A stretch of DNA of 42,218 bases from a virus. The notes beneath the pieces were generated by a model. That model was not told the origin of the DNA. It saw only the letters and a list, made by a program, of their open reading frames with translations, and did no database searches. A program made the position numbers and the translations under genes. Location: the IMG/VR virus record IMGVR_UViG_3300021791_000004, positions 1 to 42,218 of that record; one strand, given 5' to 3'. Numbering within the stretch: the first letter of the stretch is position 1; the number at the start of each line of letters is the position of its first letter. This document shows positions 754 through 42,218 of the stretch, one piece after another.

Positions 754-774
754 GACCACCCCAAGGGGGTGATC
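754..774 (-). terminator. GC-rich hairpin downstream of the last gene (weak terminator candidate)
   Basis: The minus strand reads gatcaccccc-ttg-gggtggtc: about 9 bp of stem including one G-U, with a 3-nt loop. It lies 58-78 nt after the stop at 832. The trailing aatccttcttc is only moderately U-rich. Confidence 0.3.
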
Positions 775-831: not shown

Positions 832-1191
832 TTAGTCCTCCCCCTCCTCCTCCTCTTCTTCTGACACTGAGCTGAACCCCTCATCATCCTCTAAGCCAGC
901 AGGATGGTAAATCACGAAGACACCTTTGAGTATATCCCCATATAGGTCTACCTCTGAGTCTTCCCAGTACCTAGGGAAGCTCAAGGACCTCAAGGTTATC
1001 CTCTGTACCCCCGGTTCCTCTTTATCTTCTTCATACTTAATAACATGAATATCAGAAGCATGCTCAAGGACCCTTATAGCCCTTCCAGCCATCCCTATGT
1101 CCACCTTAGTAAAGACTGTCGCTCCATACCTCCGTAGCTTTCGGTCTGTCTCAGGGCCTTCTAGTCGCCCTATTGCTTTCCTAATAGCCAC
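832..1191 (-). CDS. Hypothetical protein with a poly-Glu acidic C-terminus
   Basis: ORF ending ...SSVSEEEEEEGED. The codon at 1191 is GTG, preceded by gaaaggga. An alternative ATG at 1092 (MAGRAIRV...) is preceded by aaggtgg. No family recognised. Confidence 0.55.
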   Translation of the reverse strand: MAIRKAIGRLEGPETDRKLRRYGATVFTKVDIGMAGRAIRVLEHASDIHVIKYEEDKEEPGVQRITLRSLSFPRYWEDSEVDLYGDILKGVFVIYHPAGLEDDEGFSSVSEEEEEEGED

Positions 1192-1505
1192 TCTATATCC
1201 CTTTCAATTGTGGAGATCTGCTTTTGGGTAGCTAAGTGACCTTGGTCAACATGCTCCTTAAACTCAGACCTAATAAACAAGCCTACCGATAAGACCAAAC
1301 CTACAGTAGCCATAACCAAGGGCCAAGATACTGACTTACCTTGAAGGACCAAGGTTTTGACCTCATCGAACCCTGTAGTCAAAGCTTTTTCTACTTGTCC
1401 TAATCGGTTATCTAGGCTATTTACATGACCTTTAAGGGATTGCACTTCTGTTTCAACAGCAGCAGTTCTAGCGTGTACATCAGAGGGATCATGGGGAATA
1501 GGCAT
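1170..1505 (-). CDS. Membrane-anchored coiled-coil protein (holin or lysis-regulator candidate)
   Basis: ATG at 1505, 111 aa. N-terminal heptad-like helix (VETEVQSLKGHVNSLDNRLGQVEKAL) and one central hydrophobic span (WPLVMATVGLVLSVGLFI). It lies directly downstream of the HExxH gene. Confidence 0.6.
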   Translation of the reverse strand: MPIPHDPSDVHARTAAVETEVQSLKGHVNSLDNRLGQVEKALTTGFDEVKTLVLQGKSVSWPLVMATVGLVLSVGLFIRSEFKEHVDQGHLATQKQISTIERDIEWLLGKQ

Positions 1506-1513
1506 CTCACATA

Positions 1514-1852
1514 TTAGCTCCTGCTCTTTTTAATATTATTATCAAATAAGAAATTAAACACTTTAAGGTTCCTAGGTTCAGTAAGGACAGTAAGGAGTCC
1601 CCCAGTTAGCCTGACTACTTGCTCCTCTGTTAGGTGAGTCCCTGAGGCCCCATAGGTGAAGTCAATTGCATGAATAATCTCATGTAGAATAGTATCAGAT
1701 AGACAGTCAGTAACCTGCTGACTATCTACCTTAATTCTGCCAGCAGTGAACAGAAGCTGACCCAAGTCATCTCCCATATTTTCACCAGAAATTTTCTCTA
1801 TTAAAAAACTACGATTACCTACCACCACCCTAGAAGGGAGCTTATTCGACAT
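1514..1852 (-). CDS. Small HExxH zincin-like protein (putative metallopeptidase)
   Basis: ATG at 1852, 112 aa. HEIIH (aa 57-61, nt 1670-1684) sits in the hydrophobic helix context TILHEIIHAIDF, with THLTEEQVV downstream. No signal peptide. Confidence 0.6.
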   Translation of the reverse strand: MSNKLPSRVVVGNRSFLIEKISGENMGDDLGQLLFTAGRIKVDSQQVTDCLSDTILHEIIHAIDFTYGASGTHLTEEQVVRLTGGLLTVLTEPRNLKVFNFLFDNNIKKSRS

Positions 1853-1872: not shown

Positions 1873-2526
1873 CTATAAAGAACCCCCAAGATGCACACCA
1901 ATCTTAAGAGAGGTATTCTTAATGGCCCCTCTACCTATCCAATAGGTCATGCTGGTTGACTTAACAAAATCAGTAGATGCAGTGTAGTGAATCTTCATCT
2001 GTATGTGGTCTACTCTGGGAGAAGGAGTACTTCCTCCAGCGCGTCCCGCTGAGATCACACTGCCAAACTTAGAGCTGTTGACTGCTGCAGGGGTCAACTG
2101 GGTAGTGGCACTGAAACCCCAAAGGTCACTTGAAGAACCTCTAGTCTGAGTACTATCAGAAAAAACCCCCCATGTACCGGCTTCAGCATTCTCATCACTA
2201 CCCTCATAGGAACCTCCACCAAGAACTAACTTGATAGAGTTATCCTTAGATGCCATAGCTCCGTCACACTCGTACTGCAGTTCTACACCTGTAATAGTGG
2301 CCCCTGCAGGAATCCCAAAGTGATACTGAGAGCTGTAAAGATAAGCAGAAGGATTTGATGAGTCTATACCAGACACAGTAACTGCATCATCATTATCCGA
2401 TGTAATCAAGAGGGCAGTCAGGGACGCAGCAGAAGTACTGTCGGTATCAGGATCCTCCCATAAGCTAGTCCCAATGGAGTCGTCATTCTCCACCCTTGAG
2501 GGAGAAGTGTAGCCTTCAGTAGCCAT
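1873..2526 (-). CDS. Hypothetical Ser/Thr/Gly-rich protein (possible virion or tail accessory)
   Basis: The track ORF starts at GTG 2532. ATG 2526 (MATEGYTS...) follows gggaggtaa at a suitable distance. The composition looks beta-rich. No family recognised. Confidence 0.6.
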   Translation of the reverse strand: MATEGYTSPSRVENDDSIGTSLWEDPDTDSTSAASLTALLITSDNDDAVTVSGIDSSNPSAYLYSSQYHFGIPAGATITGVELQYECDGAMASKDNSIKLVLGGGSYEGSDENAEAGTWGVFSDSTQTRGSSSDLWGFSATTQLTPAAVNSSKFGSVISAGRAGGSTPSPRVDHIQMKIHYTASTDFVKSTSMTYWIGRGAIKNTSLKIGVHLGGSL

Positions 2527-2547
2527 GAGCACTTACCTCCCTCTTAG

Positions 2548-2856
2548 TTAGATTGTATATAGATTGACTAGACCACTACAAGTACCTGATGAATGTGTAA
2601 GTGTAGCTTGCATTTGAGGGAATAGAGCGACTCTGATAGAACCATTAGTATTTGCATATGCAGTAGAGTCTATCTCAGTCCATGAAGAGTTATCAGACAT
2701 ACGCCCTTCAATCTTGATAGTAGCAGTGCCAACTCCTACTTCAGATTGGATTAAACCTTCGTTGTTCTTTGCAAGTCTTCCACAACCAGTAGCTACCGTT
2801 CCAGTAGTTGATCCTGATGTAATATCGGCAGCATTCAGTAAATTAAAAATAGGCAT
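2548..2856 (-). CDS. Hypothetical small beta-rich protein
   Basis: Two in-frame ATGs at 2862 and 2856. The SD gaaaggaaag is better spaced for 2856 (MPIFNLL...). Product is 102-104 aa and Gly/Thr/Ser-rich. Confidence 0.6.
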   Translation of the reverse strand: MPIFNLLNAADITSGSTTGTVATGCGRLAKNNEGLIQSEVGVGTATIKIEGRMSDNSSWTEIDSTAYANTNGSIRVALFPQMQATLTHSSGTCSGLVNLYTI

Positions 2857-2890
2857 AACCATCTTTCCTTTCGTGTTGAATCAGAACTAC

Positions 2891-3070
2891 TTATTTCTTT
2901 CCTGTACGGTTCATAAGGCGGCCCATTCCCCTAACTGCCACCGTACCCGCAGTTGTAAACGCCTTCCTAAAAAATTGGTTCTTTTTATCTTCCAATCCTT
3001 GTATCTTTTTTAAAGTACTGCCTATCTCTTCAATTCTTTGACCTGCTACTTTTCTAAAAGAAGTTCCCAT
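2891..3070 (-). CDS. Small basic protein, 59-aa model (alternative: one 92-94-aa ORF reaching 3169/3175)
   Basis: ATG 3070 (MGTSFRKVAGQ...) follows aaaggg by 8 nt. The track's 94-aa ORF begins with TTG at 3175. The two models cannot be separated from sequence alone. Confidence 0.4.
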   Translation of the reverse strand: MGTSFRKVAGQRIEEIGSTLKKIQGLEDKKNQFFRKAFTTAGTVAVRGMGRLMNRTGKK

Positions 3071-3074
3071 GTCT

Positions 3075-3182
3075 TTAACCCTTTCTGTTGGTGGTTTTCT
3101 TTTTCTTCTTCCTAGCTGCAGCCTTAGCTTTAGCTTTCCCTTTAGCTGTGTACGCATAACGCTTTCCATCAACAACTGGCAT
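3075..3182 (-). CDS. 35-aa Lys/Ala-rich peptide (not in the ORF track)
   Basis: ATG 3182 is preceded by tgaaaggaacttaagg (good SD). Translation: MPVVDGKRYAYTAKGKAKAKAAARKKKKKTTNRKG, stop TAA at 3075-3077. It overlaps the 5' part of the 94-aa track ORF in another frame. Confidence 0.4.
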   Translation of the reverse strand: MPVVDGKRYAYTAKGKAKAKAAARKKKKKTTNRKG

Positions 3183-3198: not shown

Positions 3199-4902
3199 TT
3201 ATCTTGCTTGGGCCATCCTAGTTTGCCTTCGTGACTTTCCCCATCTGGGAGCTTGATCTGTACTTGCTCCTCCAGCAGCTACGACGAACTTATTCAGCTC
3301 TGCATCTAGCAAAGCCTCTCTCCTACTGCTTATAGCTTTGTCAGCGTCCCTTCTTAGCTGCTCATTGAAGTAATTAACTGCTGTAGATAAGGCATCTAGC
3401 CTATCGTCGTGCACTAAGCACCCTCTATCCCTTGTTATGTGGCTTAGTTGGTACATTAAGGAGAAAGCAGAGGTGAAATCCCCTTCTCTGTGACTAGGTA
3501 CAGTTGTATCTTCTTCAATCACAGCAGTATCAACTACCAAACGATGTTGGGTCAGGACAGGCTCTAATGTATCTATGATTCGTGCTTCTTTCTGCCCACT
3601 GACTCTTATTTCTTCTACTACACAGGGGTATTCCTTATCAAAGTAGGGTTTAAGAATAGATCCGAACATACCATCACCATAGTTACTCTCATATAGGGTC
3701 TTCTGTACCTTATATGTCTTAGCATCCTTAACTATTTGCTTAAGCACCTCCTCGTCATAGCCGTTTTGATCACCTCCAGACTTCAATAGGTACAAATAAC
3801 CGTTAAGAAACTTGATTATTATCCATGTAGTCTCATCCTTACCTCGTCCTGAGGGGTCAATTACAAGTATTGAACCTGTATATGGCAACCATTCCTCCTT
3901 AGATACCTGCATAGGCTGGTAATACCTGTCCCCATCGAACCCATAGCACTCTATATCCCATGCTAAGTCAGGAGATTTGGCCCAAACTACCTTCTGAGGG
4001 GCCACTTCATCGTTAAGATTCATGACAATCAGGTCATCTATCTTCAATGGATAGCGAACCATGTCAGATAGACGAGTATCAAGCATGAATTGGAGAGCAA
4101 AACCAGACCTACCATAGGAGATCTCCCTAGAGTTCAGCTCAAAGTCTGGAAACCTAGTGGGTTCAGTAGGAGTTCCTCTTAAACTAGGGGTATCTTTGAC
4201 TGCCTCTTTGATGTGGGGCATCAATTTGTCCCCTAGGAACTCTTCATACTCCTCATTTGGATAGCGAGCCGGGAGTAGGATTTGCTTGTACCCTCGGTTC
4301 ACCAATTCGTTATATAAAGATTGGATAGTTTGTGGTGTGCCTAGGTAAGCAATTCTCCCTCCCGGTTTAATTACTGCTTCAAACTCCTTTACCGATTCCC
4401 TTATCTTCTCTCTCATACCTTCCGTAGCTGAGTTCTTTGGGTTCTCAACATCGTCAGGGATAATCAAATCAGATCTATCACCAGTAATGTTGCCAGATAT
4501 GGATGCTGACTTCATTGACGGAGATTGATCAGACTTACAGGGACCAATATCAAACTTGACAGTCGATTGACGCTGATGGGTCTTAGGTCTTAAGTGCTGT
4601 AAGAACTCAACCTGATTAATTAAGTCCAAGCAGAAGGTTGAGAAGTTGGCAGCACGTTGCCCACTCGCAGATACCACCATAATCTTAGTGTCATAGTTCC
4701 AATACCAAGACCATAAACAGAAAGCACTTGTAATAAAGGACTTACCAACCCCTCTGAATCCTCCAAACATCAGTCTATCAGGACCGTGTTGCAGTAAGTG
4801 AGCAAGTTCATACTGATTGGTGGTAGGCTCAGGGAGATCTAAGAACTCCCAGATTCGATACAAGAAGTTTCTAAAATCTTTAAAGCCTTCTTCTTGTGCC
4901 AT
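3199..4902 (-). CDS. Terminase large subunit (T7 gp19-like)
   Basis: 567 aa. P-loop-like GGFRGVGKSF and Walker-B-like LIIPDDVEN. Size and position (after the small terminase candidate, near the genome end) match T7 gp19. Confidence 0.9.
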   Translation of the reverse strand: MAQEEGFKDFRNFLYRIWEFLDLPEPTTNQYELAHLLQHGPDRLMFGGFRGVGKSFITSAFCLWSWYWNYDTKIMVVSASGQRAANFSTFCLDLINQVEFLQHLRPKTHQRQSTVKFDIGPCKSDQSPSMKSASISGNITGDRSDLIIPDDVENPKNSATEGMREKIRESVKEFEAVIKPGGRIAYLGTPQTIQSLYNELVNRGYKQILLPARYPNEEYEEFLGDKLMPHIKEAVKDTPSLRGTPTEPTRFPDFELNSREISYGRSGFALQFMLDTRLSDMVRYPLKIDDLIVMNLNDEVAPQKVVWAKSPDLAWDIECYGFDGDRYYQPMQVSKEEWLPYTGSILVIDPSGRGKDETTWIIIKFLNGYLYLLKSGGDQNGYDEEVLKQIVKDAKTYKVQKTLYESNYGDGMFGSILKPYFDKEYPCVVEEIRVSGQKEARIIDTLEPVLTQHRLVVDTAVIEEDTTVPSHREGDFTSAFSLMYQLSHITRDRGCLVHDDRLDALSTAVNYFNEQLRRDADKAISSRREALLDAELNKFVVAAGGASTDQAPRWGKSRRQTRMAQAR

Positions 4903-22098: not shown

Positions 22099-22365
22099 TT
22101 AATGATTTCTTATAGATCTAAGAGTGTCATTGAAGACAGCAATCTTATTGAAGTCTTCACGGACATGATCTGGCCAAGGACTATGACTCATCATCCAGTC
22201 CTTAGTTTCCTGAGTGAACTCGATAGGTTCTAACCAAGACAGGTCATCGTAAGAATGCCCTAAGCTACAGCTTGTTAACGATGTCCCTATCGTTATCAGG
22301 GACACTACAATTAGCAGTCTTACGAGCAAGTTGAAACCTTTTGATAGTCTCTTTAAGAGAGGCAT
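22099..22365 (-). CDS. Outer-membrane lipoprotein, o-spanin candidate
   Basis: 88 aa, ATG at 22365. Signal-like MPLLKRLSKGFNLLVRLLIVVSLITIGTSLTSC with lipobox L-T-S-C. Short mature part containing SPWPDH. The start is embedded out of frame in the preceding ORF. Confidence 0.55.
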   Translation of the reverse strand: MPLLKRLSKGFNLLVRLLIVVSLITIGTSLTSCSLGHSYDDLSWLEPIEFTQETKDWMMSHSPWPDHVREDFNKIAVFNDTLRSIRNH

Positions 22366-22474
22366 TCTCTTTCTCTAGCCTTCCTTTTTGCACTAAAGTT
22401 CGCTGCCCTAAATAGGAAAAGATAGCCTGAATTACAGCTAGAGCTGATCCTATTAAACTAGTTATTCCAACCAT
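22265..22474 (-). CDS. N-terminally anchored coiled-coil protein, i-spanin candidate
   Basis: 69 aa. N-terminal TM ITSLIGSALAVIQAIFSYL followed by the charged helix RLEKENASLKETIKRFQLARK. Overlaps the lipoprotein ORF across 22265-22365. Confidence 0.5.
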   Translation of the reverse strand: MVGITSLIGSALAVIQAIFSYLGQRTLVQKGRLEKENASLKETIKRFQLARKTANCSVPDNDRDIVNKL

Positions 22475-22477
22475 GAT

Positions 22478-22678
22478 TTAGCTATCACCTGTTCCATTGT
22501 TATTGGAAGTCTCTACTTTCTTGGAGATTGCTTCTAGCTTATTAAGAGCTGGAGTAAGCATTTCTAAAATCTTATCATCCTTCTTAGAAGGAGTTAGCTT
22601 AACTACTAAGCAAGCTAAACCATAAGCAGCAAGAAGAAACTCACATATGCTAGCCCAATTACTATATACCCAATCCAT
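22478..22678 (-). CDS. Small single-TM protein (holin candidate)
   Basis: 66 aa. One TM (ICEFLLAAYGLACLVV) followed by LTPSKKDDKILEML and a polar tail. It is the first of three small membrane-protein genes. Confidence 0.5.
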   Translation of the reverse strand: MDWVYSNWASICEFLLAAYGLACLVVKLTPSKKDDKILEMLTPALNKLEAISKKVETSNNNGTGDS

Positions 22679-28551: not shown

Positions 28552-30174
28552 TCAGAACTCTCCTTGTGCTTGCTGATCAAACCCTACGTCCAATACCTCT
28601 TGCAATCGGGCAGTGTCACGATCCCATTTCAAACTTCCACATACACCTGTGTCCCCGGTGTGCCTGTTCTTTAATATCCTTATAGTAGAAGTGTCCTTGT
28701 CATCATCATCCTCTGACTGCTGATTGCGTTCAGCACTTAATACTATATCGGATATCTGCCCTATCGCATGTGAACCTCTTAACAAATTAAGTGAAGGTCT
28801 ACTCAAACCCTCTTCAGTACTCCTTTCAGTTCTTCTTAGATGGCTGACCACAATCAGTCTGCATCCTACCTCTTGTGTTAAGGCCCTTAGTTCTGTCATA
28901 GTGTTATCAATCATTCGCCGCTCATCCCCATCTGCTTGTCCAGATATAAGTATAGATAAGTGGTCAATGAACACAGTCTTACAATCTAGCCCTCTAACTA
29001 GATACCTAACTTTAGCTATTAGATTGTCTGGATCCAAGACTCCATGATGATCATACAAGTACCATCTTCCAGATCCTAAGGTGCGATCATATGCTTCCTT
29101 TAGTTCTTCTAGACCTACAACAGAGCTATCTAGATGAACAGGTTTGCTAAGCTCAGTAGACAGTATGCCTAAGGCAGTTCTCTTTAAGCTTTCTTCAAGA
29201 GCTATGTAACCTATAGTCTCACCCTTGCTTGCCCAGTAGTGAGCAAGCTCTCTACATATAGTACTCTTGCCTGTACCAGTGGCAGCAGTGATGGTAACAA
29301 TCTCATGAGTTCTACATCCTAAGGTCATCTCTTGAAGCGTAGCCCAAGGATACTCAATGGCTTCAGTGTCAGCAGGTTTAGAAACTAAATCCCATAAGTC
29401 CCTACCATCTATGATCCCATCAGGTCGCCAAGGTCTAGCCTTGAATATAGCAGCTACAACCTCACTTCCCCTATCACTGACCAGCATTTCATTAGCATCT
29501 TTCAAAGGCAACGAAGCTATGAATGCCCTGCCCGGAGGTAGGACTGCTGCAGCTAAAGCTGCTGCCTCCTGTCCGGGAGTATCCATGTCAAACATTAAGA
29601 TCACTTCCTTGAATGTACTCAGCCACTCAATAGACTCTGATATAGCTCGCTCGGCATGAGCACTGCCATGAGCTATGCTAACAACCGGCCACTTGTGTGA
29701 TTGAATTTGGGACACCGACAAGGCATCCAACTCACCTTCAACTACAATCACCTTGGGTCCTCCGGGTTTCCACATATGCTGCCCATAAAGTCCTATGTTC
29801 TTAGTGTCGCCTACCCATACAAACTTCTTATCAGCTCCTCTAAGTTTCTGAGCCACTACTCTACCATCTGCACTCATGTACTGAGCAGCATGAACTGGGC
29901 TACCATTCATCTTACCTATGCCATAGCCCCATCTTCTACAAGTATCTTCTGATAGCTTTCGTTTAGGTATGTTTGCAAACTCTACTTCAATCATTCCATT
30001 TATACTCCTTTTAGAATGTGACTTTACAACTGAGTCCTTACCCTTCTCATAATACTTACAACCAAAGCAGAATCCATGTCCATCATCAAATCTAGCTAGG
30101 TTATCTCTGCTTCCACACTTAGGACATGGTTCATGCTTTACAAATACGCTGTTGCTGTTTGTTGTTGGGTTCAT
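28552..30174 (-). CDS. Primase-helicase (T7 gp4-like)
   Basis: 540 aa. Zn-ribbon CPKCGS...GHGFCFGC, TOPRIM VVEGELDALS, Walker A ATGTGKST, Walker B FIDHLS. Confidence 0.92.
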   Translation of the reverse strand: MNPTTNSNSVFVKHEPCPKCGSRDNLARFDDGHGFCFGCKYYEKGKDSVVKSHSKRSINGMIEVEFANIPKRKLSEDTCRRWGYGIGKMNGSPVHAAQYMSADGRVVAQKLRGADKKFVWVGDTKNIGLYGQHMWKPGGPKVIVVEGELDALSVSQIQSHKWPVVSIAHGSAHAERAISESIEWLSTFKEVILMFDMDTPGQEAAALAAAVLPPGRAFIASLPLKDANEMLVSDRGSEVVAAIFKARPWRPDGIIDGRDLWDLVSKPADTEAIEYPWATLQEMTLGCRTHEIVTITAATGTGKSTICRELAHYWASKGETIGYIALEESLKRTALGILSTELSKPVHLDSSVVGLEELKEAYDRTLGSGRWYLYDHHGVLDPDNLIAKVRYLVRGLDCKTVFIDHLSILISGQADGDERRMIDNTMTELRALTQEVGCRLIVVSHLRRTERSTEEGLSRPSLNLLRGSHAIGQISDIVLSAERNQQSEDDDDKDTSTIRILKNRHTGDTGVCGSLKWDRDTARLQEVLDVGFDQQAQGEF

Positions 30175-31779: not shown

Positions 31780-34173
31780 TTATCCTGCAAAATAAGGGGA
31801 GTCTAATACTCCAGCTATGTCTAAGGTTCCCATACTGGGAAGGGAAGGTAGCTTTGAATCTGTTAAAGATTGCAACTGTTCTCTTAGGTCTGACAGTACT
31901 GGCTTGCTATAGACTTCAACAAATGCTTCCCTTATTACACTCCCAAGCTTTTGAACATTACATGCATGAGCCGAGAATGAATCATGAACTACTCCTATAT
32001 CATCAATGCCTATCTCCTCAGCTTTGACCACAGCTTTAAGGAGAACAGTGGCATCTAGTGAGTGAATTACATTAGGTGCTACTCCATTAACTTGACGTAT
32101 AGCATCTGGAGAGGAGGATCCAGCAGCTACTTTAAGCGTAGACTTACAGCTTGAGCCATCCCCTAAAGATAAACGTACCTGCTTACTTACCATAGACTCA
32201 TAACCCTGATGGACAGGAAACCCTATGGGAGTTACCCACTTGATAGGCTTGCCGCTCTTAACAATTATCCTAGCCACATCTCTCAACCAATTCATACCAT
32301 CCCTTGCAGCTACAACTACCTCACCTATGGTGTCCCATACTATGTTGGCTAACCACTGAGCAGCTTCAGGAACTCTATCTCCGAAAGGATGTGACTGCCT
32401 TTTGTTTATGTCATCAACAATGAAAGTCCTATGTGAATACTTTCTACTACCATAAGGTGTAGTCATCACTATCCTTTTCAAAGTACCTCTATCTATCTGA
32501 TAGCTGAGCCACATGGCAGCCATCGGATCTCCTTTAACTTTCTTTATCTTACTAACAACTGCATCAGCTACATCTGTGTAGATATCATTGGGTTCTTTGG
32601 AGTACACTAAATTAGTAGAAGCTCCTGACACAGGATCTTTAAGTAGAGCAGCATAGTGCTGCAGACCTGAGCAAGTCTGATCCACACTGATAGGCAAGCT
32701 ACTCTCATAGTCTAAGCCGTCACTCTGAAAACCTGCCCACTCATGCGTCCATCTTAAGAATTGCCATGGGTCATCAGCCTCAGTCCACCACTTGTTTTGA
32801 TAGGGATCATGAGCACACTCTTCTATCTTTCTAGTGTTATCTTGCGCCCACTTTATTCGATCATCATATGATTCTTTATCGTACCCAAAGCAGTTGGCCC
32901 CATGTATTGCTAGCCATCCAGCAGACACCAAGTCTCCTATAGGTTTAGCTTCAGCAAATTGAAGCAAGCCTCTGCATAAGTCACTGCCTTGTACAGTCAA
33001 AGGATGTGGTACGGTATATACTCTGCTTCTAAAGTCTAGCTGATGTGGGTAATAGAATGTAGCATCTCCATATCTTCTACCAGTAGTTATGATCTGCATA
33101 GCTGCGATTCGTTTTGATCTAGATCGTATGTTTACATCCCATATTGCAGCAGCCTTACGCTTCCAAGCTACCCTAGATTCTCTATTAGTATCTATATCCT
33201 TAGGCTTAGGAGGCAGTGGCTTGTCTTCTGCAAAAGGTAGAGTCCCTACCTCTCTGCTCAGATGCCAATGTTCTTCTACGATAGAAAGGATAGGCGTATA
33301 TATAGACCATCCAACAGACTGAAGCTTGTTGATACCCTCATAAACTATGGGCATCTCGTAATTCTTTAAGCTATCTATGTAGCTCCTTGAAGTCCCTTTG
33401 ACTAACGGAATCCTATCTAGGATTTCTCCATGATATCCACCACTCAATGGGCCTACCCATTTCTTAGGCTCGACTACACATGGCAGATACTGAGGAGAAA
33501 GCAGCTCATAGTAATCATCATAAGCAAGCAGCCACTCTTTTAAGTTAACGGATGCTGCAATGATGGGTCCCTTCTTAGCACCCTTATGATGCATCAAGGA
33601 TTGCTTTCGTTCTACAATGCCCAAGTTAATTAAGATATCTAGAAGCACAGCTCCAACTCTAAGCCTTAACTCTTCAGTCCACTTGTCTCTATCCCATCCA
33701 GTAGTAGTCATGGCATGGGTTATAACTTTGTGCTTATATCCGGGGGACGTACTACTCTGTATTCTCCTTCTTATTGTTTCAAACAATCCGGGGTAATCTC
33801 TTCTAAATCTGTGATACCTAGACTCACGTTCAATCTCATTGCCTATCATTACTGATGTACGAGTGACTGATCTCATTCTTACAATTGAATTAAGAACTGA
33901 TCGCATGGTCAGGAGAGCAGCGGCTTTAGATTCTAAGAACTTAAGATGTTCTAATGCAATGGGTACACTGCCCGGCCTACCTTCCATCATTCCTATGCGT
34001 GTCTCAATCCTATCAGCTATAGTTACAAGCAGCCTTGCTGTGTATTCTCTTGCAGCATCTGTTGCCCATAGTTGAGATCTGTCTTTAGCTGTCTGCTGCC
34101 TAGCTCTGTATCTAATTAAACCTAGAGTAGACATCTCTGATTCCAAAGTCATTTGCTCTTCATGTTTATTCAT
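31780..34173 (-). CDS. Single-subunit DNA-dependent RNA polymerase (T7 gp1-like)
   Basis: 797 aa. VDQTCSGLQHYAALL (T7 DGSCSGIQHFSAML), VMTTPYGS (T7 VMTLAYGS), VVHDSFSAH (T7 IHDSFGT). C-terminus ...YFAG (T7 ...FAFA). Confidence 0.93.
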   Translation of the reverse strand: MNKHEEQMTLESEMSTLGLIRYRARQQTAKDRSQLWATDAAREYTARLLVTIADRIETRIGMMEGRPGSVPIALEHLKFLESKAAALLTMRSVLNSIVRMRSVTRTSVMIGNEIERESRYHRFRRDYPGLFETIRRRIQSSTSPGYKHKVITHAMTTTGWDRDKWTEELRLRVGAVLLDILINLGIVERKQSLMHHKGAKKGPIIAASVNLKEWLLAYDDYYELLSPQYLPCVVEPKKWVGPLSGGYHGEILDRIPLVKGTSRSYIDSLKNYEMPIVYEGINKLQSVGWSIYTPILSIVEEHWHLSREVGTLPFAEDKPLPPKPKDIDTNRESRVAWKRKAAAIWDVNIRSRSKRIAAMQIITTGRRYGDATFYYPHQLDFRSRVYTVPHPLTVQGSDLCRGLLQFAEAKPIGDLVSAGWLAIHGANCFGYDKESYDDRIKWAQDNTRKIEECAHDPYQNKWWTEADDPWQFLRWTHEWAGFQSDGLDYESSLPISVDQTCSGLQHYAALLKDPVSGASTNLVYSKEPNDIYTDVADAVVSKIKKVKGDPMAAMWLSYQIDRGTLKRIVMTTPYGSRKYSHRTFIVDDINKRQSHPFGDRVPEAAQWLANIVWDTIGEVVVAARDGMNWLRDVARIIVKSGKPIKWVTPIGFPVHQGYESMVSKQVRLSLGDGSSCKSTLKVAAGSSSPDAIRQVNGVAPNVIHSLDATVLLKAVVKAEEIGIDDIGVVHDSFSAHACNVQKLGSVIREAFVEVYSKPVLSDLREQLQSLTDSKLPSLPSMGTLDIAGVLDSPYFAG

Positions 34174-34390
34174 ACATCAATCGCCCCTTTCTCTTTGACA
34201 TCAGCATCTCATCATAACTAGGAATGGGGACACCGGAAGGACTACCCCAACGCCCTTCCGATTCCCCATAGATACGCTCAGCAGTTTCCTGCAGCTTTAC
34301 TTCTCGTAACTCATCAGTCAGATCTGTCAAAGAATTGACAGGGGGTATCCAACTAAATGTTGTAGTTCCTTTCATAGTGTTAGCGGGCAT
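34166..34390 (-). CDS. Hypothetical small protein (overlaps both neighbours)
   Basis: 74 aa. ATG 34390 overlaps the DUF932-like stop by 11 nt, and its own stop overlaps the RNAP start by 8 nt. No SD, so translation would need coupling. Confidence 0.45.
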   Translation of the reverse strand: MPANTMKGTTTFSWIPPVNSLTDLTDELREVKLQETAERIYGESEGRWGSPSGVPIPSYDEMLMSKRKGRLMYE

Positions 34391-35417
34391 ACTTAGTGAT
34401 TAACCTAAATGCCTTCTGCTTGATGGTGTTACCTGCACCCTCTTGCGTTCCCACAAAGGATGCCTCTCGTCTAGCCAAAGGATCCTTACCTTTGTAGTCA
34501 CGATGATCCACATAGTGGGTGACTGCATTGAAGGCAGCCCATTTAGTACGATCAATCTTTGTTACACCTTGTCTAGTAGGCAACTCATAGAAGTTCCAAT
34601 CCAAATCTGAATGAATCTCATGAACCTTATTGAACTTGCGGCTGGAATAATCAGCGTCAGTTAGAGCAGGGATGGGAAAGAGGAGACTCTTATAAGCATT
34701 CCATTCTGATGTAACCAACTCGTCTTTCGCCAGAGTTCTAGCTAGATCAGTGTACTTATCGAACCCATCGTTAATTAGAGCTAACTGATCTCTAACTTCA
34801 GAGAGCTTAGCCTTGGTGTCACCACTATGTCGTACCTTAAGTACGTCATGCTTACTAGCTTTATCCATAGCTAACCTAAGAGTATTAGAACACACTGTCC
34901 TAACAGATGTAGGAAAGAAATCTCCATGACCTTTCCCAGTATGATCCAGCTTGCAGCAGATGTACTTATGTTGAGTATCACCCACAGCTACCTCATCTAC
35001 ACCGGGGAGCTTAGCTAGCATCACAACCTGAGCACCTCCACGAAGGCTGAAGGCACACTCATACTTAAGCAAGCCATCCATGATTAGAGAGTCCAGCAAC
35101 TCGAAGCCTTCCCAGTTCTGGATAGTCTTGTAATTAGACCCAACCATACCAAGGACTTCTTGGTTATCACTGCGAACATTCAGCTTCCATCTAGGTAACT
35201 CTTCATAGTTGTCAACATCACTGCCCCTATAAGGATCATCATCATTTAATCTATACACAGGTACTTGCTCTACCAACCATCCCAATCCTGCCTCATGGAT
35301 AGCATCACTGCTAGTCATAACTCTATCAAAGATCTGACCAAGGCCATGCCATGCAGGCTTGATGCTGTACGCTGCCTCTGCAAAACCATCTTCACGAACT
35401 GTAATCTCATGTGACAT
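34380..35417 (-). CDS. DUF932 / TIGR03299-type phage-plasmid protein
   Basis: The track ORF begins at GTG 35456. ATG 35417 (MSHEITV...) follows aaggag by 6 nt. N-terminal KPAWHGLGQ is the signature I associate with DUF932. Confidence 0.65.
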   Translation of the reverse strand: MSHEITVREDGFAEAAYSIKPAWHGLGQIFDRVMTSSDAIHEAGLGWLVEQVPVYRLNDDDPYRGSDVDNYEELPRWKLNVRSDNQEVLGMVGSNYKTIQNWEGFELLDSLIMDGLLKYECAFSLRGGAQVVMLAKLPGVDEVAVGDTQHKYICCKLDHTGKGHGDFFPTSVRTVCSNTLRLAMDKASKHDVLKVRHSGDTKAKLSEVRDQLALINDGFDKYTDLARTLAKDELVTSEWNAYKSLLFPIPALTDADYSSRKFNKVHEIHSDLDWNFYELPTRQGVTKIDRTKWAAFNAVTHYVDHRDYKGKDPLARREASFVGTQEGAGNTIKQKAFRLITKYAR

Positions 35418-35492
35418 AATATTCTCCTTGTTGGTTGTCACATACACATCGGACACATACCAGCATGAGCATAAACAATATGAACATGCTAC

Positions 35493-35593: not shown

Positions 35594-35734
35594 TTATCTG
35601 CCAGTTAATAGTCCCACACTGTATCCAAACACTACTATCTTACCTGTAATAAAACCAACAGCAAATACAAATATACCTGCTGATAAACCATACACAAATC
35701 CATTGAACAAGTCAACTATTCTCCTTGACACCAT
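35594..35734 (-). CDS. 46-aa hydrophobic peptide (not in the ORF track)
   Basis: ATG 35734 lies 2 nt after the upstream stop, and ggagg 9 nt upstream serves as SD. Translation: MVSRRIVDLFNGFVYGLSAGIFVFAVGFITGKIVVFGYSVGLLTGR, stop TAA at 35594-35596. Confidence 0.5.
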   Translation of the reverse strand: MVSRRIVDLFNGFVYGLSAGIFVFAVGFITGKIVVFGYSVGLLTGR

Positions 35735-35736
35735 GA

Positions 35737-35937
35737 TCATTCACCTCCATCTTGTTTATACCTAGCAGCAATGCCATCCGATGCTGCTCTCATGTCTTGA
35801 AACATACCCCTGCTAAGAACTTCAGCACCATCAATCATACCCCTGACAGTGCCACAACTTATCAAGAATCCAATAGCAATAAGAATGATAATCGTGTAAG
35901 CAATTAAACTAAACCTCTTAATAGTTTTCTTCGACAT
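35737..35937 (-). CDS. Early small lipoprotein candidate
   Basis: 66 aa. MSKKTIKRFSLIAYTIIILIAIGFLISCGT is a basic n-region, a hydrophobic core and a lipobox-like L-I-S-C. The mature part is about 38 aa. Confidence 0.6.
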   Translation of the reverse strand: MSKKTIKRFSLIAYTIIILIAIGFLISCGTVRGMIDGAEVLSRGMFQDMRAASDGIAARYKQDGGE

Positions 35938-42069: not shown

Positions 42070-42218
42070 CCTGCTACCAGCCACTTTGAGCGTTATTGGG
42101 TACGCATGGTGGAGGTTACTGTTAGGAGCGTGGCAGGCGGCGATTTCTACGCCAGCAGGTGATCTAACTATCCATCCTTGCACTTTCCCGCTTTGCTCGC
42201 TGCAGGTTCACTTTCATT
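42070..42218. repeat. Direct terminal repeat, copy at high-coordinate end (the canonical left end of the phage map)
   Basis: Identical to 1-149. Truncated by the window edge. Confidence 0.9.

Follow-up and report, generated by a model that had tools for sequence, protein, structure and literature searches.

What does a bacteriophage gain from a metallopeptidase of only 112 amino acids (aa) that is encoded beside small membrane proteins at the very end of its genome? This question is raised by the right end of IMG/VR virus record IMGVR_UViG_3300021791_000004, which we analysed over positions 1 to 42,218 (hereafter the window, meaning this whole stretch of 42,218 nucleotides (nt)). A sequence-only reading had picked out a small HExxH protein and an adjoining membrane protein near this end, proposing a non-canonical endolysin-holin pair in a genome with no recognisable lysin and naming a regulatory or anti-host protease as an alternative. 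We tentatively favour, with somewhat less than even confidence, a late-expressed, protein-directed metallopeptidase that works with membrane partners. The zincin is the first gene of a fixed right-end module that continues with one or two bitopic membrane proteins and a small acidic protein. In the window, this module reads as follows:

1514..1852, minus strand: predicted stand-alone minimal zincin metallopeptidase, 112 aa (open reading frame (ORF), conservation, AlphaFold2 model and fold matches)
1170..1505, minus strand: bitopic membrane protein, 111 aa, starting 8 nt after the zincin stop codon
832..1191, minus strand: third module gene, 119 aa, overlapping the membrane-protein gene by 22 nt, with a homologue in every related locus

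Because positions 1-149 are identical to 42070-42218, we took the window to be the full genome of a T7-like podovirus, comprising ~42.07 kb and a perfect direct terminal repeat of 149 bp, with the zincin genes at its right end, after the large terminase subunit TerL; the claimed genome-end location therefore holds. The repeat itself could be a physical terminal repeat or an overlap arising from circular assembly. Both ORFs were present on the minus strand where they had been placed and were adjacent, separated by 8 nt and not by the 9 nt first given. The HEIIH motif also lies at its reported position, nt 1670-1684, and corresponds to residues 57-61 (H57, E58 and H61) of the 112-aa protein; the putative third metal ligand, E76, is encoded at nt 1625-1627. 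A lone HExxH is not significant, with ~0.4 occurrences expected by chance in the 13,375-aa proteome and 0.003 in 112 aa. The motif is considered real because H57, E58 and H61 do not vary across 67 diverse homologues and a zincin fold is predicted, which bears out the description of the protein as a very small zincin. Comparison with relatives also revealed many synonymous changes, demonstrating that the zincin and the 111-aa membrane-protein genes are coding and under purifying selection.

The zincin (isoelectric point, pI, 6.3) is 55-71% identical among relatives of the same lineage. A first search returned seven metagenomic homologues in which H57, E58, H61, D64, C50 and a C-terminal GGLL..L..PRN block were all invariant. 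This was followed by 145 homologous proteins of 90-150 aa in a profile search and at least 793 family clusters (50% identity, E <=0.001) in an exhaustive hidden Markov model (HMM) search, all of them uncharacterised. Across the 67 diverse homologues, G31, H57, E58, H61 and N95 were invariant and D53, T54, L56, A62, E76 and L86 were >=90% conserved. The resulting family pattern is DTxLHExxHA...(15)...E, represented in the window by HEIIHAID.

Structure prediction covered two proteins of the genome, the 112-aa zincin and the 119-aa third protein. The AlphaFold2 model of the zincin (67-sequence alignment; pLDDT 90.3, pTM 0.83) contains a four-stranded sheet (residues 8-11, 14-21, 31-34 and 39-43), a helix bearing HExxH (48-67), a second helix (76-91) whose first residue is E76, and a C-terminal helix (93-111). 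D64 is an alternative candidate for the third ligand. When the model was compared with the PDB using Foldseek, the top matches were all zincins (IrrE/PprI, proabylysin, selecase, projannalysin and SPRTN), with E-values of 0.05-0.9 and probabilities of up to 0.96. Against predicted viral structures (BFVD), 22 matches fell below 1e-3 (best E 2.7e-6; TM-score up to 0.78), nearly all of them phage proteins of ~100 aa, some unnamed and others labelled SprT-like, IrrE N-terminal-like or 'peptidase'. At the sequence level, the window zincin fell under the threshold of every Pfam family (SprT-like, 14.4 bits versus a cut-off of 25.6; DUF6782, E 0.24), and its best PHROG was phrog_1233 (unknown function, 3.4e-8). 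A Pfam poll of the 67 family members gave SprT-like matches in 53/67 (best 2.8e-7), DUF6782 in 34/67, M78 in 12/67 and M76 in 8/67. In published phage zincin-like metallopeptidase (MPTase) domains, HExxH lies on one helix and a third-ligand Glu on the next, and one clade carries an Asp three residues past HExxH (PMC5512222). As the pattern found here fits this description, we classify the 112-aa protein, on sequence and model, as a predicted minimal gluzincin-type metallopeptidase of a large uncharacterised phage family, and not as a strict SprT-like or M78 protein.

This family has relatives in the SprT-like, IrrE/ImmA (M78) and minigluzincin peptidases, and each comparison brought out both likeness and difference. 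Minigluzincins (proabylysin, projannalysin and selecase) share its size (~105-110 aa for the archaeal ones versus 112) and its order of sheet, HExxH helix and then Glu-bearing helix, with the Glu as putative third metal ligand, and three of them (4jiu, 4jix and 4qhf) were among the top PDB fold matches (probability 0.66-0.91). However, the TM-scores were only 0.40-0.44, identity was 12-16% and there was no detectable kinship at the sequence level. Moreover, minigluzincins are archaeal, cellular and auto-inhibited by their own C-terminus, whereas the window zincin is viral. IrrE/PprI, which together with ImmA represents Peptidase_M78 (PF06114), was the best PDB fold match (3dti; E 0.055, probability 0.96) and has in common HExxH and a downstream Glu, the putative third ligand of the window zincin; the M78 matches in 12/67 family members were weak, and the window zincin itself has neither an M78 match nor the C-terminal sensor domain. 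SprT-like (PF10263) was the commonest weak Pfam match and the SPRTN structures 6mdw and 6mdx were among the fold matches, but the window zincin is under the gathering threshold and carries no zinc ribbon or DNA-binding domain. In SprT and SPRTN the third metal ligand is a downstream His. No conserved His occurs downstream of H61 in the phage family, and the conserved Glu, E76, would occupy the third-ligand place; H73 alternates between His and Tyr within the subfamily, in a segment absent from most of the wider family. Finally, the zincin-like MPTase domains of polyvalent proteins (Iyer et al. 2017, PMC5512222) have the same core of sheet, HExxH helix and Glu helix, and weak BFVD matches linked the window zincin to PolyVal metallopeptidase domains. 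Unlike the window zincin, which stands alone, those domains form part of very large, virion-delivered proteins.

Conservation and fold together suggest that zinc would be bound by H57, H61 and E76, with E58 activating water as the general base, and that a substrate peptide may add a further strand to the edge of the four-stranded sheet. A protein substrate is preferred because all fold neighbours are protein-directed peptidases; the soluble, stand-alone zincin would thus cut protein and not peptidoglycan. Searches for a muralytic fold (Pfam, PHROGs, PDB sequence and fold searches) returned only zincin relatives.

The partners of such a protease were sought in the rest of the module. The 111-aa neighbour has a coiled coil at residues ~10-55, one hydrophobic transmembrane segment at ~58-80 (nt ~1266-1332) and a charged C-terminal tail of 30 residues, in line with the N-terminal coiled coil and single transmembrane helix ascribed to it by the sequence-only reading. 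Its best profile matches were all weak (DUF7310, E 0.0014; an XhlA-type 'hemolysin' phrog, 0.1; an Rz-like phrog, 0.28) and no significant holin-family match was found in Pfam or PHROGs. Identity between relatives is 73-82%, similar to that of TerL (79-82%). The third protein is less conserved (52-58% identical among relatives), with an invariant core (RRYGAT...LEHA...RSL.FPR.W...VD.YG...HP) and a variable acidic tail. Its core was modelled as beta-alpha-beta4 (pLDDT 85-92) and it had no Pfam or PHROG match. We also considered the third protein as a hidden lysin and rejected this, the model having no PDB fold match (best E 0.28, TM 0.35). For both the membrane and third proteins, tblastn gave no match below E 0.3 in GenBank phage records and none in IMG/VR, and on these searches they appear to be confined to this lineage.

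Gene order in the module was fixed. All 15 related right-end loci (L001-L009, L133-L138) carry the zincin, then one or two small bitopic membrane proteins, then the 119-aa homologue. In most of these loci the membrane protein is the coiled-coil type seen in the window. In four (L001-L004) it is replaced by an unrelated 92-aa protein with a Gly/Ala-rich N-terminal transmembrane segment (e.g. L001:5505-6488), and one locus (L134:940-2303) has both, in the order zincin, 92-aa protein, coiled-coil protein and third protein. The Gly/Ala-rich segment of the 92-aa protein resembles a signal-arrest-release-type anchor. This constancy of order, together with the 8-nt gap and the gene overlaps, suggests that the genes are expressed together and probably function together. 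Entry and transcription of the right end come last in T7-like phages, so the module would be expressed at the very end of infection. Under the protein-directed reading, the membrane partner(s) would position the protease on the cytoplasmic side of the inner membrane, or regulate it there, at this late stage.

The same right-end linkage to one or two bitopic membrane proteins can be read as a lysis cassette, as the sequence-only reading had done. Here, the zincin would be a murein peptidase that reaches the periplasm through holin lesions, with the adjacent membrane protein(s) acting as holin, antiholin or lysis partner, and the XhlA-like layout of the 111-aa protein (coiled coil, then transmembrane segment) would agree with this, albeit through a weak match. 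To establish whether a conventional lysin is encoded, Pfam was run on nearly all minus-strand ORFs >=90 aa, and PHROGs on the ORFs left unassigned by Pfam plus ten further ORFs (eight of them <90 aa). At profile-HMM sensitivity, no amidase, lysozyme, transglycosylase, M15, M23, NlpC/P60 or CHAP domain was found in the ORFs covered, nor did tblastn of eight lysins from related phages against the six frames of the window give an accepted match. A weak tblastn match of the amidase of phage RpY2 to the N-terminus of a 2023-aa protein (E 0.1, 136 aa) was rejected (hhalign probability 0.09; PDB sequence search empty). Thus the absence of a recognisable lysin, as first noted, was borne out. The place in which relatives encode an amidase could be located precisely:

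30131..30174, minus strand: junction of the endonuclease I and primase genes, which overlap; this is the gp3.5-type amidase slot of relatives, empty here

This slot is likewise empty in five close relatives (primase 71-76% identical; genes abut) and filled by an amidase in more distant ones (primase 41-45% identical), indicating a lineage-specific loss. The nearest cultured phages are marine Roseobacter CRP and Pelagibacter HTVC019P-type podoviruses, with capsid and RNA polymerase only 36-39% identical. Two of these, HTVC019P (gp15) and CRP-804 (gp12), have a gene for a gp3.5-type amidase or lysozyme in the slot between the endonuclease I and primase genes, and HTVC019P has a second lysozyme directly after TerL, the position occupied here by the zincin module. 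Neither of these amidase-bearing phages has a member of the small-zincin family. All of these observations speak for an endolysin. The window also has, between the scaffold and capsid genes, a candidate lysis cassette of three genes, recognised by its architecture:

22099..22678, minus strand: candidate lysis cassette, three genes between scaffold and capsid
22478-22678, minus strand: 66-aa holin-like protein, one transmembrane segment and a charged C-terminus
22265-22474, minus strand: 69-aa i-spanin-like protein, N-terminal transmembrane segment then coiled coil
22099-22365, minus strand: 88-aa o-spanin-like lipoprotein, signal peptide and lipobox LTSC, with an out-of-frame overlap with the 69-aa gene

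The genes, their overlap and the lipobox Cys are kept in six IMG/VR relatives (L099-L104; capsid proteins 66-83% identical) wherever the contig covers the region. The cassette proteins had no HMM family match and no significant PHROG lysis match, and both spanin candidates are short; judged by its layout, this is a candidate holin plus Rz/Rz1-type two-component spanin. A position between scaffold and capsid is unusual for such a cassette in a T7-like phage. The cassette has two opposing consequences for the endolysin interpretation. Its retention implies that a wall-degrading step is still needed, in a genome where no canonical muralytic domain was found; however, with a dedicated holin candidate at 22478-22678 within a separate conserved cassette, the 111-aa neighbour is not needed as a holin. 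In comparison to known phage endolysin-holin cassettes (phiKMV type after TerL; T7 gp3.5, gp17.5 and gp18.5/18.7), the module shares the post-TerL right-end position and the succession of a soluble enzyme and a small membrane protein, again with no other lysin found in the genome. It differs in that the zincin has no muralytic fold, the membrane protein has no holin-family match, and the module lacks a lipoprotein partner, with the holin/spanin-like cassette lying elsewhere (22.1-22.7 kb).

The wider family provided further evidence on this point. From P0059, a more central family member, homologues in cultured Autographiviridae could be reached. RSB1 carries the zincin (gp39) after the tail fibre, and a canonical endolysin (gp43) and Rz spanin (gp44) after TerL. 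RpY2 and phiITL-1 share the order fibre, zincin, holin, TerS, TerL; in other parts of its genome RpY2 is also annotated with a T7-type lysozyme and an endolysin, and in the stretch of phiITL-1 viewed the sole lysin annotation is the endolysin domain of an internal virion protein. In DU_RP_I and Bordetella phage BB8 the zincin is located between DNA polymerase and exonuclease, with an annotated endolysin near it in DU_RP_I. Among metagenomic members, the zincin of L016 comes after a pectate-lyase-like tailspike and close to an M15 peptidase, that of L017 is surrounded by early or Nin-type genes, and that of L018 comes after tail genes. A census of three genes either side of the zincin in 35 IMG/VR lineages recorded DNA polymerase/exonuclease, terminase/portal/head and tail-fibre contexts, and an endolysin or amidase within three genes in 3/35. 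The pairing with a membrane protein was rejected as a family-wide trait, a transmembrane protein occurring directly downstream in only ~3-4/35 lineages. Domain fusions gave no useful clue to the substrate: longer members were tandem zincins or repeat artefacts, and no wall-binding, signal or helix-turn-helix (HTH) fusions were seen among them.

Members of the family hence appear, from their gene contexts, to be floating accessory genes that accompany canonical lysins and do not replace them. A protein substrate is favoured because of this company, the diversity of contexts and the lack of wall-binding, signal or HTH fusions, and also by the published proposal that phage zincin domains serve in autoprocessing or in cleaving host proteins (PMC5512222, PMC7824862). 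An endolysin, in contrast, sits poorly with the coexistence of family members and canonical endolysins in Ralstonia and Bordetella phages (at least four cultured groups, among them RSB1, RpY2, DU_RP_I and, by its annotated domain, phiITL-1) and in L016, with the frequent location in replication or head modules, with fold neighbours that every one act on proteins, and with the absence of a wall-binding domain and a pI of 6.3. To our knowledge, no HExxH zincin endolysin has been described, and our literature search turned up none. We regard an endolysin as quite unlikely. Of the pair first proposed, the small zincin, the lack of a lysin and the membrane protein that follows at the right end all stand; the lytic function was not upheld, the zincin having no muralytic fold, wall-binding domain or export signal, the genome having a separate holin/spanin-like cassette, and the family coexisting with endolysins. 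The fold neighbours and family contexts instead favour the alternative that had been raised alongside it, a regulatory or anti-host protease. The sequence-only reading had overlooked the third module gene, a conserved HEFGH motif in the 2023-aa internal virion protein and the cassette at 22.1-22.7 kb.

Anti-host activity can itself be understood without the membrane neighbours. A soluble effector could cleave a cytoplasmic host defence or regulatory factor, the conserved synteny being historical. The patchy distribution of the family across varied neighbourhoods, in phages of both Gram-negative and Gram-positive hosts, and the resemblance to the repressor-cleaving IrrE/ImmA proteases would suit this. 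SprT-like and ArdC-like phage zincins were inferred to target host proteins (PMC7824862, PMC5512222); the floating accessory behaviour fits this published view, in which zincins process phage polyproteins or cleave host proteins (PMC7824862, PMC5512222). For the window zincin, though, right-end genes are expressed last in a T7-like phage, which is late for countering defences, and the invariant linkage to membrane and acidic proteins, with tight spacing and overlaps, argues for joint function. In addition, Pfam detected no Xre/HTH repressor partner beside the zincin within the module. Thus, we consider an effector acting independently of its neighbours unlikely.

Other contexts bear on a role in the virion. 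Between TerL and the zincin the window has:

1873..3182, minus strand: variable post-terminase genes upstream of the zincin, encoding 35 aa (3075-3182), 104 aa (2548-2862) and 219 aa (1873-2532)

In relatives, larger Laminin_G_3 or fibre-like proteins take the place of these genes. The zincin might trim, or help to assemble, the fibre-like proteins encoded just upstream, acting as a maturation protease for the receptor-binding protein or virion. It is directly downstream of fibre, tailspike or Laminin_G_3 genes in several independent lineages (this lineage, RSB1, RpY2, L016 and L018), adjoins a 'tail fiber assembly protein' in phiITL-1, and has tail-fibre PHROGs among its upstream neighbours. 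Many family members, however, lie between DNA polymerase and exonuclease or beside terminase/portal genes, and the upstream fibre-like genes are hypervariable whereas the zincin module is constant. Such a role would also leave the membrane proteins without a function, and the known route of fibre self-processing uses S74 intramolecular chaperone peptidases, not zincins. Taken together, we judge virion maturation to be very unlikely.

Several observations count against a protein-cutting protease with membrane partners. The proposed protein substrate is deduced from fold relatives whose Foldseek E-values against the PDB are weak (0.05-0.9), and the proposed physical coupling of zincin and membrane protein from synteny. 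No murein hydrolase was detected in a genome that encodes holin and spanin candidates and belongs to a lineage from which the gp3.5 amidase is gone; elimination then leaves the zincin among very few enzyme-like late proteins. Its constant association with small membrane proteins at the end of the genome is also reminiscent of a lysis cassette. Furthermore, identity between the window subfamily and the wider family is only 24-37%, and the subfamily has invariant residues of its own (C50, D64 and GGLL..L..PRN), so its function may have changed.

All genes of the window are on the minus strand and, on this coding strand, begin with early genes, RNA polymerase (31780-34173), single-stranded DNA-binding protein, endonuclease I, primase/helicase, DNA polymerase and exonuclease, continue with portal, scaffold, capsid, tail tube A and nozzle, and end with internal virion proteins, a T7-type fibre, TerS, TerL (3199-4902) and the post-terminase genes. 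The lineage is uncultured, with relatives from TARA Oceans and other metagenomes. TerL shares ~50% identity with its counterparts in Ralstonia, Limnohabitans and Mesorhizobium podoviruses, and neither the window region nor the zincin gave a match in 50,697 phage records (megablast, tblastn). Directly after TerL, the 35-aa ORF (3075-3182, minus strand; MPVVDGKRYAYTAKGKAKAKAAARKKKKKTTNRKG) is very basic (pI ~11) and is kept in L005 and L006; a 94-aa ORF that overlaps it in another frame (2891-3175) is probably spurious. Downstream of the module lies one further feature:

754..774, minus strand: G+C-rich hairpin followed by a T-rich tract (9-bp stem, six GC pairs), 58 nt after the last gene

This hairpin may be a terminator closing the late operon, although such sites in the region are only as numerous as expected by chance. 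Around the module, sigma-70 promoter-like and terminator-like sites were no commoner than in shuffled sequence, and the repeat families of the genome yielded no clear phage-promoter consensus. The non-coding right end (~417-640) has A-rich periodic tracts (AAAAAC-type) and then tandem CCACAGCCAGCC-like repeats, which may form an array at the genome end or concatemer junction, as in T7; long ORFs called in this region, e.g. 433-759, look spurious. A DUF932-family protein of 358 aa (34380-35456, minus strand) is encoded directly upstream of the RNA polymerase gene and is kept in L007, L008 and L137. The early region 35594-35937 (minus strand) encodes a 66-aa lipoprotein-like ORF (lipobox LISC) and an adjoining 48-aa transmembrane peptide, which could be superinfection-exclusion or membrane-modifying early proteins.

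A second HExxH occurs in the same genome, within the 2023-aa gp16-like internal virion protein (6446-12517, minus strand), as HEFGH at residue 1049 (nt 9359-9373). This motif, its context and an EE.FA..E.W element ~35 residues downstream are conserved in the L008 and L009 orthologues. It lies within a lineage-specific N-terminal extension of ~1,240 residues, which is missing from the homologues of CRP-804 and HTVC019P, and HExxH was absent from the homologues in CRP-804, HTVC019P, RpY2 and phiITL-1. No Pfam family matched the segment, which may represent an MPTase domain of the polyvalent-protein type within an ejected protein. Kinship with the small zincin was rejected, as only the motif helix aligns (hhalign probability 2.7%). 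In T7, gp16 has a transglycosylase domain at its own N-terminus. A scenario in which an amidase-less marine T7-like lineage with holin and spanin degrades the wall by its 112-aa zincin and bitopic partners, with the HEFGH segment as a possible counterpart during entry, can be drawn from these observations; we hold it to be distinctly improbable.

The window zincin adds a new, below-threshold member to a known superfamily and to a large uncharacterised phage family. What is new here is a fixed zincin-membrane protein module in an amidase-less T7-like lineage that keeps holin and spanin candidates. If the zincin were the lysin after all, it would define a new endolysin class and explain lysis by these abundant marine podoviruses, and if the HEFGH segment acts during entry, a zincin-like segment could stand in for the usual transglycosylase domain. 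Most likely, however, the zincin acts as an ordinary accessory protease. Should it not be the lysin, the lineage still has a murein hydrolase that has escaped recognition, and the module would make a tractable model for common phage proteases. Phages widely carry stand-alone zincins of ~100 aa, in at least 793 clusters at 50% identity, none of them with a known substrate. Locked in a module of three to four genes with membrane proteins, the zincin of this lineage offers an unusually clean setting in which to search for one.

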